Position numbers and translations under genes: made by a program. A model generated the notes under the pieces. The model saw only the letters and a list, made by a program, of their open reading frames with translations. It had not been told where the DNA came from and did no database searches. DNA of 64,000 nucleotides, from the NCBI RefSeq assembly GCF_044324785.1, contig NZ_CP172127.1. The stretch is one strand, 5' to 3'. Source of the stretch: Escherichia coli (GTDB lineage: Bacteria > Pseudomonadota > Gammaproteobacteria > Enterobacterales > Enterobacteriaceae). Shown here piece by piece: positions 4,587 through 14,506 of the stretch. The first letter of the stretch is position 1, and each line of letters opens with the position of its first letter.

Positions 4587-6128
<1,542 letters not shown>

Positions 6129-6291
6129 AAAAGTTTGATGCTCAAAGAATTAAACTTCGTAATGAATTACGTGTTCACTCTTGAGACTTGGTATTCATTT
6201 TTCGTCTTGCGACGTTAAGAATCCGTATCTTCGAGTGCCCACACAGATTGTCTGATAAATTGTTAAAGAGCAGTGCCGCTTCGCTTTTTCT

Positions 6292-6500
6292 CAGCGGCGC
6301 GGGGTGTGCATAATACGCCTTCCCGCTACAGAGTCAAGCATTTTTTTGCTTTTCTCTGTTGAGATTCTCAGGAGAACCCCGCTGACCCGGCGGCGTGTTT
6401 GCCGTTGTTCCGTGTCAGTGGTGGCGCATTATAGGGAGTTATTCCGGCCTGACAAGAGGAAATTTAAAATAATTTTCCGACCGCGCAACATTCAACCAAA
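6292..6500 (-). promoter_or_regulatory. rrnB tandem promoters P2 (about 6292-6337) and P1 (about 6415-6454) with upstream A/T-rich UP/Fis region
   Basis: Reverse complement contains TTGTCAGGCCGGAATAACTCCCTATAATGCGCCACCACTG (P1) and TTGACTCTGTAGCGGGAAGGCGTATTATGCACACC (P2); A/T tract aaatttaaaataatttt upstream of P1. Confidence 0.85.
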
Positions 6501-7358
6501 TCAGTCTAAAACTGCCAGTTTTTCGAGCGTTTCGAAGCCGTAACGCTGTAAAACGGGCAATAATTGTTCAGCTTCTGGCGTCATTGCCATACAAAAGGCA
6601 ATATTCGCATCGGCAGATTTTGCATCCGGGGCTTCATGTTCTAACAGCCAGGCCGTTCGGCGAGCAATCGCTGCGCCAGAATCCACCAGCCGGGTTCCCT
6701 CTGGCAGCACCTGTAACAGTTCTTCTTGTAGTAGAGGGAAATGGGTACACCCCAGTACAACGGTATCTGGCGGCTCTTTCATTCTTAACCACGGGCGTAG
6801 GATACGTTTTAGCGCATCCAGAGAAACATCTTCGCCATGCAGCTTCGCTTCAGCCAACTCAACCATCTCTGCCGAGCCCAGCATTTCTATCTGGCATTCA
6901 TTAGCGAAACGCGCGATCAGCTCATGAGTATAAGAACGTTTAACTGTTCCGCGGGTTGCCAGTAATCCGACAATGCCATTTGCCGTCAGACGTGCAGCAG
7001 GTTTAATCGCCGGCACGACACCAACAACCGGGAAGTCGAACTTTTCGCGTAATGCAGGAAGTGAAACGGTACTGGCAGTGTTGCAAGCAACCACAGCCAG
7101 CGCAAGGGGATAACGTTTTTGCACTGCGGTGACAATTGCCACCACTCGCTCAACAATAAACGCTTCGCTTTTTTCGCCATACGGGAAAGCGACGTTATCG
7201 AAAGCATAAATGTAATGGAGATCCGGTAAGAGATGCCGGATCTCGTCATAGACCGACAACCCACCGACGCCGGAGTCAAACACCAGCACGGTGGGACGTG
7301 GTTCAGAAGGTGTAGCTGCCAGACAAGGTGTATTCCCGTCCTGCAGTTTGGTAGCCAT
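6501..7358 (-). CDS. murI: glutamate racemase MurI
   Basis: Translation [37 protein letters not shown]...; start taken at conserved MATKLQ rather than the upstream in-frame Met of the ORF track. Confidence 0.93.
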
Positions 7359-9147
7359 AGACTGTCTCATAATCTTTGTCGAACAGGTTGGCTATTTTAC
7401 CACGAACTGTCAGGTGAGAGGTGACCGGATACGCAACCGCAAGATCCCACAAGCTCACACCGCCCATTTTAACGGTTTGATAAGGATAAGATGAGTAATC
7501 CTTATCATAGCGAGTGCCTAAATACTGATAAGTAATACCCCAGTCGAAGTCATACAACTGCCAGTCGAGCTGGTATTTCACCTGCTGTTTAGCACGGCGT
7601 AACAACGGCGTGTCGGTAATTGCATTGCGCGCATCGACATAATCATAACTCACAGTATGCGTCAGTGGTCCGGTATCAAAATTGGCGGTCGCCTCGACGC
7701 CCTTAATCCGCGCTTTCCCTTCGTTGTAATATTTCAGGGTGTGATCATCATAATCGATCAAGTCACTGACATCGTTACGATATCCGGAAATACGCCAGTT
7801 CACCCCAGCGGTTAAACCTTCAAACGCGCCTTCCCACTGTTTGCTTTTCTCAGGGTCCAGATTCGGATTTCCGTAGAAACCATACAGTTGTCCAAGATTT
7901 GGTGCCTTATAAGATGTCCCGTAGGAAGCAATGAAGCGATAACCTTCGATTAATTCCCAACCGATGCTGGTTTGCCAGGTTCCATGACGACCAAACTGTG
8001 AGTTATCGTCGCTGCGTGCTGCGCCTTCAAAGGTAAAATCGCCGACTTGTTGCAGCCCGGTCAGATAGATGCCGGTATTACGTTGATCATATCCATCCTC
8101 AACATAACCTGTACCCGGCGTCGTAGTCTGTTTCTGCCAGTCGACACCCGCACCAATACTACCGTGACCAACGATGACATTGTTTGCCCACTGGACGGTG
8201 TACTGCTTCATCTCATCCAGCGTCGCGGACGAATCATAACGACCATAATGGGGATCGTAGTTGTAATCTTTGCTATGGCTATAGCTGGTAATGAGTTGTG
8301 ATTTAATCAGTTCGCCGTTATAGCGCAGCCCGGCGTCCCAACTTTGGCTATAGAGTTTACGGGTATCGAGCAACGGTGAGCCGGGAGAATAATACGCGTC
8401 ATAATTGGTACGGTTATCATAGCCATAGCCGCGCACAAAGCCGCTCCAGGCATCAGTAAAGTTATGCTCCAGCGCGCCATAAAGCGTTTTACTTAAAAAA
8501 CCATCGTTATCTGTCTGCGCTTGCGTTCCGGTATTACCATAGGCAACAACATCATAACCATGAGTATGGGCATAATCGCCCAACAACGTTACTCGTGTCT
8601 TATCCCCCAGTTGTTGCTGCGTAGAGACATCATAGTTCTGATAACTATTGCTTCCCCACCCTGCTGAAATTTCCGTTCCGGGTTCATCGCGCGTCGTGAT
8701 GATATTCACCACCCCGCCTATTGCATCGGAACCATAAACGGCGGAGCGCGGCCCACGGATATATTCAACACGCTGGACAAGCGCAATAGGGAACTGGCTA
8801 AGGTCGGCAGAACCACTCACCCCCGCCAGATTCAGGCGTACGCCATCAATTAACACCAACACATGACTGGCATTTGTACCGCGAATAAAAATAGATGATA
8901 GCTGACCTGAACCGCCGTTTTGGGTGATATCCACGCCCGGAAGACGGCGCAGCACATCATTGACCGAGGTCGACTGCCAGCGGTCGATATCCTGACGCGT
9001 CACAATGGTGGTTGGTGCAAGCACAGTGCTGCGCGGCTGTTCAAAACGGTTAGCAGTAACGACGAGAGTATCCGGGCTGGTATCCTGTGCCCAAGCAGAA
9101 AAGGCTGTGACAGAACACGCCGTCAGCAGCGAAGCTTTTTTAATCAT
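7303..9147 (-). CDS. btuB: TonB-dependent vitamin B12/cobalamin outer membrane transporter BtuB
   Basis: Translation [37 protein letters not shown]... ending ...SGSYTF (TonB-dependent receptor C-terminal Phe); 3' end overlaps murI start by 56 bp. Confidence 0.95.
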
Positions 9148-9199
9148 TGTAAAGCATCCACAATAGAAGAAGGATGCCGCAGGTTTCATCAATATTACG

Positions 9200-9395
9200 C
9201 GATGATGAGAACCAGATGCGACGTTGGCCGGCAGGTCTTCGGGCTTGGAGGGGTATCTAAGATACTAAGAGATGATGACTTCCCACCGGATGGCAGTGTC
9301 CGCATAACGCAATCATCGCACCTTTCCTTACCGCTGCGCGTCAGCTCCAGATTCGCACTGGATTCCCTATTAACTCACAGGACCGGCAAGTGGAT
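9200..9395 (-). promoter_or_regulatory. cobalamin (B12) riboswitch in btuB 5' leader
   Basis: Reverse complement reads GCCGGTCCTGTGAGTTAATAGGGAATCCAGTGCGAATCTGGAGCTGACGCGCAGCGGTAAGGAAAGGTGCGATGATTGCG..., the btuB leader carrying the B12 element; boundaries approximate. Confidence 0.75.
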
Positions 9396-9515
9396 GCTAC
9401 AGGTTGTAACAAGTTACTGTCCAGACGTAGCTCACAAATAGGAATTCATCAAGATCTGGACATCTGATGAGCAATCCCTACAATCGCCGCGTACTTTAAT
9501 TTTTCAGGATACATC

Positions 9516-10655: not shown

Positions 10656-11015
10656 TTACTCAGCAACTTCCTGCTTACGGTTACGCATCTTCGCGCCAAT
10701 CCAGAACACCATAATGACGGACAGTACTGCCGGGAAGAAGTTAGAGCCGATATCCGGATATTCCGCACGAACTACCGTGCTGTACAGCAGTACGCCGAGA
10801 ATAAAACAGGCAGCTGCCAGACCCGGCAAGCCTACCGGCATAGTGCGATTAAGATAACGTTGATGCAGGCAGTAAACCGTCAGCACCAGGGAAATAATCG
10901 GGAATACAGAAAATGGCACAATGGAGCTAAACAGCGCTGCGAAAGTACCATTAATCGATAAGCCAGCCACCAGCGCCAGCAGCAGCGTACCTCTATCTTG
11001 ATTTGCTTGTTTCAT
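10656..11015 (-). CDS. yijD: small inner membrane protein YijD
   Basis: 119 aa, hydrophobic, conserved position downstream of fabR. Confidence 0.85.
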
Positions 11016-11662
11016 TACTCGTCCTTCACATTTCCCGGAATAATTGCGGATTTCTCTTGTTCACGGCGATACCAGTAATAAGCCCCTTTCGAAATCATTC
11101 GCAGTTGCAGTACCAGTCGCTCTTCTAATTGCCGACGTTGTTCGACGCCGACGTCCAACGCCTCGGCACCCGCACTGAAGACAATCGTCACCATGGCTTC
11201 GGCTTGCGCTTCAGTAAACGCACGCGGCATATGGTTTTCGAGTTCCAGATAGTCCGCAAGTTCCGCAATGAAGTGCTGAATTTCACGCGCAACGGCGGCA
11301 CGAAACGCAGCGGAGGTGCCGGAGCGTTCCCGCAATAATAACCGGAAGGCGTTAGGATTATTACCGATGAACTCCATAAATGTGGAGACCGAGGTACGGA
11401 TCACACTCCCGCCTTTGGCGATACGCTGACGCGCCTGGCGCATGAGTTGGCGTAGCATTAAACCGCTCTCATCAACCATGGTCAGACCCAGTTCGTCTAC
11501 GTCGCGGAAATGCCGATAAAAAGAGGTGGGAGCAATGCCCGCTTCACGCGCCACTTCACGCAAACTCAGGCTGGCGAAGCTGCGTTCAGCACTTAATTGG
11601 CTAAATGCGGCTTCCACCAGCGAACGGCGGGTTTTTTCTTTTTGTTGCGCTCTTACGCCCAT
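11015..11662 (-). CDS. fabR: TetR-family repressor of unsaturated fatty acid biosynthesis FabR
   Basis: Translation from [29 protein letters not shown]... with TetR-type HTH; upstream in-frame extension in ORF track rejected. Confidence 0.88.
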
Positions 11663-11996: not shown

Positions 11997-13397
11997 ATGC
12001 CACATTCCTACGATTACGATGCCATAGTAATAGGTTCCGGCCCCGGCGGCGAAGGCGCTGCAATGGGCCTGGTTAAGCAAGGTGCGCGCGTCGCAGTTAT
12101 CGAGCGTTATCAAAATGTTGGCGGCGGTTGCACCCACTGGGGTACCATCCCGTCGAAAGCTCTCCGTCACGCCGTCAGCCGCATTATAGAATTTAATCAA
12201 AACCCACTTTACAGCGACCATTCGCGACTGCTCCGCTCTTCTTTTGCCGATATCCTTAACCATGCCGATAACGTGATTAATCAACAAACGCGCATGCGTC
12301 AGGGATTTTACGAACGTAATCACTGTGAAATATTGCAGGGAAACGCTCGCTTTGTTGACGAGCATACGCTGGCGCTGGATTGCCCGGACGGCAGCGTCGA
12401 AACACTAACCGCTGAAAAATTTGTTATTGCCTGTGGCTCTCGTCCATATCATCCAACAGATGTTGATTTCACCCATCCACGCATTTACGACAGCGACTCA
12501 ATTCTTAGCATGCACCACGAACCGCGCCATGTGCTGATTTACGGTGCTGGAGTGATCGGCTGTGAATATGCGTCGATCTTCCGCGGTATGGATGTAAAAG
12601 TGGATCTGATCAATACCCGCGATCGCCTGCTGGCATTTCTCGATCAAGAGATGTCAGATTCTCTCTCCTATCACTTCTGGAACAGTGGTGTAGTGATTCG
12701 TCACAACGAAGAGTACGAGAAGATCGAAGGCTGTGACGACGGTGTGATCATGCATCTGAAGTCGGGTAAAAAACTGAAAGCTGACTGCCTGCTCTATGCC
12801 AACGGTCGTACCGGTAATACCGATTCGCTGGCGTTACAGAACATTGGGCTGGAAACTGACAGTCGCGGACAGCTGAAGGTCAACAGCATGTATCAGACCG
12901 CACAGCCGCACGTTTACGCGGTGGGCGACGTGATTGGTTATCCGAGCCTGGCGTCGGCGGCCTATGACCAGGGGCGCATTGCCGCGCAGGCGCTGGTGAA
13001 AGGTGAAGCCACCGCTCATCTGATTGAAGATATCCCTACCGGCATTTACACCATCCCGGAAATCAGCTCTGTGGGCAAAACCGAACAGCAGCTGACCGCG
13101 ATGAAAGTGCCATATGAAGTGGGCCGCGCCCAGTTTAAACATCTGGCACGCGCACAAATCGTCGGCATGAACGTGGGCACGCTGAAAATTTTGTTCCATC
13201 GGGAAACGAAAGAGATTCTGGGTATTCACTGCTTTGGTGAGCGCGCTGCCGAAATTATTCATATCGGTCAGGCGATTATGGAACAGAAAGGTGGCGGCAA
13301 CACTATTGAGTACTTCGTCAACACCACCTTTAACTACCCGACGATGGCGGAAGCCTATCGGGTAGCTGCGTTAAACGGTTTAAACCGCCTTTTTTAA
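11997..13397 (+). CDS. sthA: soluble pyridine nucleotide transhydrogenase SthA (UdhA)
   Basis: 466 aa; [24 protein letters not shown] (FAD GxGxxG), pyridine nucleotide-disulfide oxidoreductase family. Confidence 0.93.
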
Positions 13398-14297
13398 CAC
13401 TTTATCGAAATGGCCATCCATTCTTGCGCGGATGGCCTCTGCCAGCTGCTCATAGCGGCTGCGCAGCGGTGAGCCAGGACGATAAACCAGCCCAATAGTG
13501 CGGCGTGGTTCCGGCTTAATGCACGGCAGATAAACAACCCCATCGCGTTTGCGCTCCGGCGGCACAGCCAGCGCTGGCAATAAAGTGATCCCGCTACCTG
13601 CCGCCACCATGTTGCGCAGCGTCTCCAGGCTGGTCGCGCGGAAGTGTGTATCTTCATCTGCCCCGGCTTCAAAGCAGAAACCCATTGCCTGATCGCGCAA
13701 ACAGTGACCGTCTTCCAGCATCAGCAGTTTTTCCCCTGCCAGATCGGCCATCGGTACGCATTCGCGGTTCGCCCACGGGTGATCTTCATAGATAGCCAGC
13801 AACATTGGCTCATCAAACAACGGCACTTCAATGAATGCTTCGCTCTCTTTCACCAGCGCGAGGATCACGCAATCGAGTTTGCCGCTGTCCAGTTGCGCCA
13901 GTAACTGGTGGGTCTGTGCTTCATGCAGATACATTTCCAGCTTTGGAAAGGTCTGGTGCAGCATCGGGATAATATGCGGTAGCAGGTACGGCCCGACCGT
14001 GGGAATCAAACCAATATGCAGCGGCCCGGACATGGTCTCACCCTGCTGGCTTGCCATCTCTTTAAGGACTTTCACCTCACGCAGCACGGTACGCGCCTGA
14101 TCCACCAGCAGCATTCCCGCCTGGGTGAACAACACTTTACGGCTGGTCCGCTCCAGCAACATCACGCCCAGCTCATCTTCCAGCTTACGAATTTGCCCGC
14201 TAAGCGTCGGCTGGCTAACGTGGCAGGAGTCTGCCGCACGCCGAAAATGGCGGTGTTCAGCCAATGCCACCAGGTACTCAAGATCACGAATATTCAT
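13380..14297 (-). CDS. oxyR: LysR-family hydrogen peroxide-responsive regulator OxyR
   Basis: Translation [44 protein letters not shown]...; start at conserved MNIRDL; 3' end overlaps convergent sthA by 18 bp. Confidence 0.95.
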
Positions 14298-14396
14298 TAT
14301 CCATCCTCCATCGCCACGATAGTTCATGGCGATAGGTAGCATAGCAATGAACGATTATCCCTATCAAGCATTCTGACTGATAATTGCTCACAGAAA

Positions 14397-14506
14397 CGGA
14401 GCGGCACCTCTTTTAACCCTTGAAGTCACTGCCCGTTTCGAGAGTTTCTCAACTCGAATAACTAAAGCCAACGTGAACTTTTGCGGATCTCCAGGATCCG
14501 CTTTTT
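14397..14506 (+). ncRNA. oxyS: OxyS small regulatory RNA, divergent from oxyR
   Basis: Sequence GAAACGGAGCGGCACCTCTTTTAACCCTTGAAGTCACTGCCCGTTTCGAGAGTTTCTCAACTCGAATAACTAAAGCCAACGTGAACTTTTGCGGATCTCCAGGATCCGCTTTTTTTT, including the terminator hairpin GCGGATC/GATCCGC and U tract. Confidence 0.93.

Follow-up and report, generated by a model that had tools for sequence, protein, structure and literature searches.

The boundary between btuB and murI in Escherichia coli raises the question of where an essential gene starts, and how it is expressed, when its first codons lie inside a neighbor that is repressed by vitamin B12. We addressed it in a window of 64,000 nucleotides from contig NZ_CP172127.1 (RefSeq assembly GCF_044324785.1), which also holds a second coding overlap, between the convergent genes sthA and oxyR. 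Both overlaps are real, ancient, and fixed features of the Enterobacterales chromosome; they are also the standard arrangement of Escherichia-type genes, already annotated and already known. To these known overlaps we make two modest additions, a block of frozen synonymous sites with a promoter-like motif upstream of murI and a covarying hairpin at the end of sthA. Taken as a whole, the account given here is in our view the best explanation of the two overlaps, with a probability of about three in four.

Identity and conservation of the btuB/murI overlap

All four proteins concerned (BtuB, MurI, SthA, and OxyR) were identified by NCBIfam equivalog models, well above the respective cut-offs. 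On the minus strand, btuB (7303..9147) encodes a TonB-dependent vitamin B12 receptor of 614 amino acids (NF007926, 1107 bits for a cut-off of 836), and murI (6501..7358) encodes a glutamate racemase of 285 amino acids (NF002034, 515 bits for a cut-off of 408). The open reading frame listing and translation place the btuB stop codon TGA at 7305..7303 and the murI ATG at 7358..7356, giving a coding overlap of 56 nt (7303..7358, minus strand). This segment encodes the last 18 residues of BtuB and its stop codon together with residues 1 to 19 of MurI, in different frames, the second position of a btuB codon being the first position of a murI codon; the murI ATG itself is formed by the btuB codons TAT-GGC, 53 nt ahead of the btuB stop codon. 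A cobalamin riboswitch (9213-9402) lies upstream of btuB, and the order in the window is trmA, btuB behind its B12 riboswitch, murI, and an rRNA operon. PDB entry 2JFN contains the same 285-amino-acid MurI sequence except for two substitutions; compared with this E. coli structure, the window carries E85K and G262E.

Open frames often run back into the preceding gene by chance alone, and it is because the overlaps are conserved that we regard them as real. The best-matching E. coli genome in RefSeq is annotated with an identical 56-nt overlap (murI at 6102-6959 and btuB at 6904-8748 of locus L001), and positions 6400-9500 of the window find a match in 5425 of 5426 complete E. coli genomes, the closest being 98.9% identical. 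Given this identity and the two MurI substitutions, the window may stem from an uncommon Escherichia or Shigella lineage. With each species represented by a single genome, a scan yielded 80 further loci (L002-L081), nearly all from Enterobacteriaceae, with 52 to 99% identity to the window for BtuB and 86 to 98% for MurI; in every one of these 80 loci the BtuB match ends 53 nt past the murI start, which corresponds to the 56-nt overlap. While the first protein search returned close Enterobacteriaceae only, wider sampling through a 50%-cluster library and contig look-ups recovered the trmA-btuB-murI order with the same overlap in Proteus, Xenorhabdus, Providencia, Photorhabdus, Serratia odorifera, and S. 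fonticola. In total, each of the 87 further Enterobacterales loci sampled, ranging from Escherichia to Proteus and Serratia, has an overlap of this length. The first-pass annotation of the window was therefore right about the coordinates, the gene identities, and the length of this overlap, as judged by reading frames, NCBIfam models, and the RefSeq annotation of L001. Its description of both overlaps as conserved backbone rather than novelty is also borne out, with 56 nt in all 87 loci and, for sthA/oxyR, 18 nt in 74/74, both annotated in RefSeq.

Compared with the annotated btuB-murI pair of E. coli, the window has the same genes on the same strand, the same 56-nt out-of-frame overlap, and the same trmA-btuB-murI-rrn neighborhood; nothing essential differs, and the window only adds a sporadic upstream ATG at 7370, discussed below. 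The overlap is already present in the literature as the reason why the Keio collection contains no btuB knockout.

The body of btuB is exchanged as a cassette. In two Escherichia loci (L002 and L003), the region 7410-9100 shows 50 to 70% DNA identity to the window and BtuB 56 to 57% amino acid identity, while identity to the window is 95 to 99% in murI, in the terminal ~100 nt of btuB, and on the riboswitch and trmA side. The BtuB proteins of the 80 species group at identities of about 54, 65, 78, and 85%, a grouping at odds with the MurI tree, and about 375 of the 5426 E. coli genomes cover less than 80% of the query at the megablast level.

The murI start codon and the N-terminal tail of MurI

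The size of the overlap depends on where MurI begins. The first-pass annotation had proposed to confirm the start codon by N-terminal conservation and had pointed out that initiation at a downstream Met would shrink or abolish the overlap. The ATG at 7358 is invariant in 88/88 sequences, and the downstream-Met objection fails. The Tyr codon that creates this ATG in the btuB frame is TAT in 81/81 sequences, while four nearby Tyr codons are TAC in 77 to 80 of the 81. Furthermore, the next in-frame murI ATG lies far downstream, within the enzyme core.

Upstream of this codon, the first ATG of the murI open reading frame, which the first-pass annotation left out, lies four codons before 7358 (7368..7370, minus strand; MRQS-MATK). 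If MurI started there, at least in part, it would have 289 amino acids, and the overlap would measure 68 nt. This ATG is in frame, with no stop codon before 7358, and it is common in Morganellaceae and Yersiniaceae, a counterpart being found in 5/6 loci of these families. However, it is not conserved in Enterobacteriaceae, where it occurs in 2/81 sequences (the window and one other), the remainder carrying TAC, and it is polymorphic within Escherichia. Moreover, the GAG(A) element that could serve as a Shine-Dalgarno sequence is located downstream of ATG 7370, no better one is found upstream of it, and RefSeq uses 7358. We consider a start at 7370 in this strain improbable, although, given its presence in five of the six distant loci, a MurI isoform longer by four residues is conceivable where the ATG occurs. 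Some pipelines annotate a MurI of 293 amino acids, 10 residues over the usual 283, as in one species locus (L037) and several database entries.

It is hardly credible, by contrast, that the overlap is an annotation artifact and that MurI begins further in, the only candidate codons there being GTG 25 and GTG 27, which would leave the two genes without overlap: most glutamate racemases do begin 2 to 6 residues before the FDSGVGG motif, the MurI tail is predicted to be disordered, and Tn5 insertions in the overlap are tolerated according to the literature, but the ATG is invariant in all 88 sequences, TAT is used only where it creates that ATG, GTG25 and GTG27 are unconserved, with third positions varying to GTC, GTA, and GTT, the synonymous sites of the murI frame are frozen in the overlap, and endosymbiont relatives lacking btuB keep an N-terminal extension.

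What the overlap encodes on the MurI side is a lineage-specific tail of about 20 residues, predicted to be disordered. In an alignment with distant homologs, it is the racemases from outside the Enterobacterales that begin 2 to 6 residues before FDSGVGG, while those of the Enterobacterales carry about 20 extra residues; in line with this, the NCBIfam MurI profile begins at residue 24. The AlphaFold model of MurI has a mean pLDDT of 90.9, with values below 50 for residues 1 to 15 and a folded core from about residue 21. Between the window and Proteus, 13/18 of the last BtuB residues are identical, compared with 8/18 of the first MurI residues. As judged from these sequences, the BtuB reading of the overlap is the better conserved of the two, and the MurI tail mostly follows the BtuB frame, which here encodes the terminal β-strand of the barrel, ending in the usual aromatic residue. 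The arrangement resembles overprinting by N-terminal extension into an upstream gene, in which a lineage-specific disordered tail follows an older, better conserved frame; it differs from such cases in being unusually old and of fixed length across Enterobacterales.

The locus of a distant gammaproteobacterium (GCA_007923045.4, L091 1562-3619) offers a view of the junction without btuB. There, trmA and murI are divergent and adjacent, 141 nt apart, and are adjoined by a TetR (fabR-like) gene and a fatty-acid desaturase gene; the MurI protein is 50% identical to that of the window and begins with MSQPILVFDSG. This junction suggests that btuB was inserted into an older trmA/murI junction. A likely sequence of events would include the placement of btuB between trmA and murI in the Enterobacterales ancestor, after which the murI start would have become fixed inside btuB. 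A reduced-genome relative has no btuB upstream of murI and keeps a shorter N-terminal extension.

A frozen block at the end of btuB and the expression of murI

The conservation at the end of btuB extends beyond the overlap. We computed synonymous-codon entropy over 81 sequences, considering codons whose amino acid is at least 90% conserved. The murI body (204 codons) has an entropy of 1.29 bits, and the overlap has 0.12 bits in the btuB frame and 0.09 bits in the murI frame. Since each btuB third position is a murI second position, the freeze within the overlap is expected. The btuB codons at -52 to -2 relative to the murI ATG, which are not dual-coding, have an entropy of 0.28 bits (7359..7410, minus strand). 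This upstream block differs from the murI body with a Mann-Whitney p of ~1e-9, and the lowest 16-codon sliding window in murI reaches 0.74. Linkage cannot explain the freeze, because the adjacent murI body is near-saturated synonymously in the same genomes.

Two elements stand out within the block. The invariant btuB codons GTT CGT GGT AAA spell TGGTAAAAT, an extended -10-like motif (7394..7402, minus strand) whose hexamer lies 41..36 nt before the murI ATG, and the codons CGT GGT AAA are invariant in 80 to 81 of the 81 sequences. The motif presents TG at -15/-14 and, in its hexamer, T-12, A-11, and T-7; these positions are invariant across the 81 species, while the position directly after the hexamer varies freely. 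At the same distance from murI, the motif is found as TGGTAGAAT, TGCTAAAAT, or TGGTAAAAT (TGnTArAAT) in six distant loci, from Proteus, Xenorhabdus, Providencia, Photorhabdus, and two Serratia, and it survives the BtuB changes K->R and G->A. Taken alone, a match to the motif is unremarkable: the 64 kb contain 3, and 4.9 would be expected by chance. The second element is GAGA (7365..7368, minus strand), a weak Shine-Dalgarno-like sequence 7 to 10 nt before the murI ATG, in which the Glu codon is GAG in 81/81 sequences.

We recognized no -35 element ahead of TGGTAAAAT, and a simple promoter scan of the window did not list the motif, because that scan requires a -35 element. Extended -10 sigma-70 promoters (TGnTATAAT) are active without a -35 element. 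The murI candidate is like them in having TG together with T-12, A-11, and T-7 at a fixed distance, and unlike them in lying wholly inside coding sequence. That the frozen block is murI's own extended -10 promoter with its ribosome-binding region is, judging from these sequence patterns, somewhat better than an even bet. Such an internal promoter would provide basal expression of the essential murI independently of the B12-repressed btuB, to which read-through from the btuB promoter would add. It would suit the position of an essential gene downstream of one that B12 represses, and it would be in keeping with the roughly 10-fold orientation bias reported in the literature for the Tn5 insertions tolerated within the overlap. 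On the other hand, the frozen block might work through the mRNA, by promoting translation initiation, and the TraDIS orientation bias is reported only for the overlap itself.

The RNA-level role is the most serious alternative, although we regard it as rather unlikely. It holds that murI has no promoter of its own and is expressed from btuB-promoter transcripts only, the block being an unstructured, A/U-rich stretch where ribosomes can initiate within a frame that is itself being translated. One study (PMC10802341) handles the pair as a single operon, and no terminator fits between the genes; the block is indeed A/U-rich and contains the Shine-Dalgarno-like GAG, the 5' region of murI shows no unusual folding (z = -0.1), and we found no transcription start site for the proposed murI promoter in the published start-site datasets consulted or in text searches. 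However, an essential cell wall gene would then follow the vitamin B12 repression of btuB. In addition, the invariant sites are those of TGn, T-12, A-11, and T-7, whereas adjacent positions vary. The literature also reports that a strain in which the first ~1000 bp of btuB are deleted, start included, is viable, although the cassette may read out. Indeed, viable btuB mutants are no proof of an internal promoter, since cassettes and transposons can supply outward transcription.

That the block has no role for murI and reflects instead recombination or gene conversion, constraint on the BtuB protein or its codons, or a hidden antisense gene, we judge very improbable: the 3' breakpoint of divergent E. 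coli btuB alleles does coincide with the block edge, and the BtuB residues within it are highly conserved, but amino acid conservation leaves four-fold degenerate sites unfixed. As for a hidden antisense gene, the two antisense open reading frames in the block are intact in only 38/81 and 4/81 species.

How far, then, does murI depend on btuB? The first-pass annotation had proposed that murI expression depends partly on both the transcription and the translation of btuB. The first half stands, since co-transcription from the btuB promoter is unavoidable, there being no room for a terminator between the genes. The second half does not follow from the overlap by itself: ordinary stop-start coupling is unlikely, because the murI start lies 53 nt before the btuB stop, which is too far. 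Short stop-start overlaps (ATGA or TAATG) also join same-strand neighbors with touching frames in one transcription unit, but there the start is 1 to 4 nt from the upstream stop. An example absent from the first-pass annotation is fabR/yijD in the same window, where the two genes share one base in TAATG (11013-11017, minus strand), preceded by AGGACGAG; this is a classic translational-coupling junction. For murI, the sequence evidence points to partly autonomous expression, and the frozen block with its -10-like motif, along with the viability of btuB-disrupted strains, may point further, to an expression that would be largely independent.

At the other end of btuB, K-12 Term-seq data for the leader and first codons (about 9100-9230 of the window) place 3' ends 75 nt ahead of the btuB start, with a riboswitch flag, and 40 nt into the gene (PMC7815308). 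These ends are consistent with premature termination at the B12 riboswitch.

A broader version of the internal promoter reading stands, to our mind, at even odds. According to it, the last ~105 nt of btuB would functionally belong to murI, the btuB codons harboring a dedicated extended -10 promoter with a ribosome-binding region, both held constant from the time of the Enterobacterales ancestor; this region would shield the racemase from B12 riboswitch control and serve as the fixed 3' anchor for the wholesale btuB allele swaps between strains.

The sthA/oxyR junction and the meaning of the two overlaps

The second overlap raises the question of how two convergent genes end their mRNAs when their coding sequences interpenetrate. 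The soluble pyridine nucleotide transhydrogenase gene sthA (466 amino acids; 11997..13397, plus strand; NF003585, 806 bits) faces oxyR (305 amino acids; 13380..14297, minus strand; NF008361, 632 bits), from which OxyS (14393-14502) is divergent. The sthA stop TAA is at 13395-13397 and the oxyR stop TAA at 13382..13380, and the resulting 18-nt overlap (ttaaaccgccttttttaa, 13380..13397) is present in 74/74 Enterobacteriaceae loci in which both genes are complete. The L001 annotation is identical, so that here too the first-pass annotation agrees with reading frames, NCBIfam models, and RefSeq in coordinates and identities. Because the two stop codons interlock, each mRNA must end within the partner gene.

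A perfect 12-nt palindrome, CGGTTTAAACCG (13376-13387), spans the oxyR stop and shares 8 nt with the overlap. Most other species have it in imperfect form, one outer base being different, and since it would form an RNA stem of only 4 bp, it probably results from the interlocked coding of the two C termini. We considered it as a terminator, in combination with the T-run found at the sthA stop, and rejected it: besides the short stem of 4 bp, the run reads CTGTTTT in most species, and termination there would cut the mRNA before its stop codon.

A better candidate for the end of the sthA message is found further downstream, within the last ~20 codons of oxyR, where a hairpin of the form GGCCATCC-N10-GGATGGCC occurs in the sthA sense (13412..13437, plus strand). 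Its 8-bp stem is G+C-rich, and the folded 75-nt stretch has a minimum free energy of -18 kcal/mol. Across 68 distinct sequences, 99.8% of the cells pair, a level that 0/500 shuffles match; three pairs change on both sides, one of them coupling an OxyR Ile->Val substitution with a synonymous Asp codon, and the loop varies freely. The stem has no U-tract, the next sequence being CUCUGCCAG, and for this reason the hairpin is not a canonical intrinsic terminator; it was not reported by a terminator scan of the window.

Published Term-seq data bear on the same site. A strong 3' end at K-12 position 4159345(-), which Adams et al. (2021, eLife, PMC7815308, supplementary file 1) class as the primary end of sthA and as antisense with respect to oxyR, has a high score in two listings of the curated table. 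Placed on the window through its printed sequence, it corresponds to position 13442; the sthA message runs 45 nt beyond its stop codon and 63 nt into oxyR, and ends 5 nt downstream of the stem. Therefore, the two transcripts overlap at least through the 3' end of sthA. Supplementary file 2 of the same study lists Rho-termination regions at K-12 4159015(-), antisense to oxyR (about window position 13772), and at K-12 4159509(+), antisense to sthA (about 13278). On the oxyR side, only the latter is listed, ~100 nt into sthA, with no curated 3' end. A candidate hairpin in the oxyR sense is present within the sthA 3' coding region (13332..13367, minus strand); the evidence for it is weak: the 103-nt stretch holding it folds well (z = -4.0), but no compensatory changes were seen in the covariation test. 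The Rho-termination region at 4159509(+) is ~50 nt beyond it.

These observations fit a 3'-end-defining or protective stem combined with Rho clearing of read-through better than an intrinsic terminator. The hairpin at 13412-13437 probably defines or protects the sthA 3' end, and Rho would terminate the remaining read-through in both directions. We give little credence to the proposal that the hairpin results from coding constraints on OxyR, with a degradation intermediate of no role as the sthA 3' end. The stem arms do encode conserved OxyR residues, a U-tract is missing, and a Rho-termination region lies further downstream, but against this stand the two-sided pair changes beside a free loop, the pairing that no shuffle reaches, and the high Term-seq score of the 3' end. 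Like other convergent pairs with terminators in the partner gene, sthA and oxyR have interlocked stops, with the 3' end of one mRNA inside the other open reading frame; they differ in that the hairpin lacks a U-tract and is not one shared bidirectional terminator, and in having Rho-dependent regions to either side of it, on the two strands. The antisense overlap could have a regulatory effect, put forward by the first-pass annotation as transcriptional interference.

Neither the btuB/murI nor the sthA/oxyR point alters the current understanding of these genes. The btuB product is a receptor for phages and colicins. When btuB is to be deleted, about the last 110 nt should be left intact, beyond the 56-nt overlap, if the block carries murI signals as we propose. 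The sthA/oxyR junction represents a convergent pair with an mRNA-end hairpin inside the coding sequence of the partner, and btuB/murI offers a clean example of the start region and disordered tail of an essential gene overwriting the most constrained strand of an outer membrane barrel.
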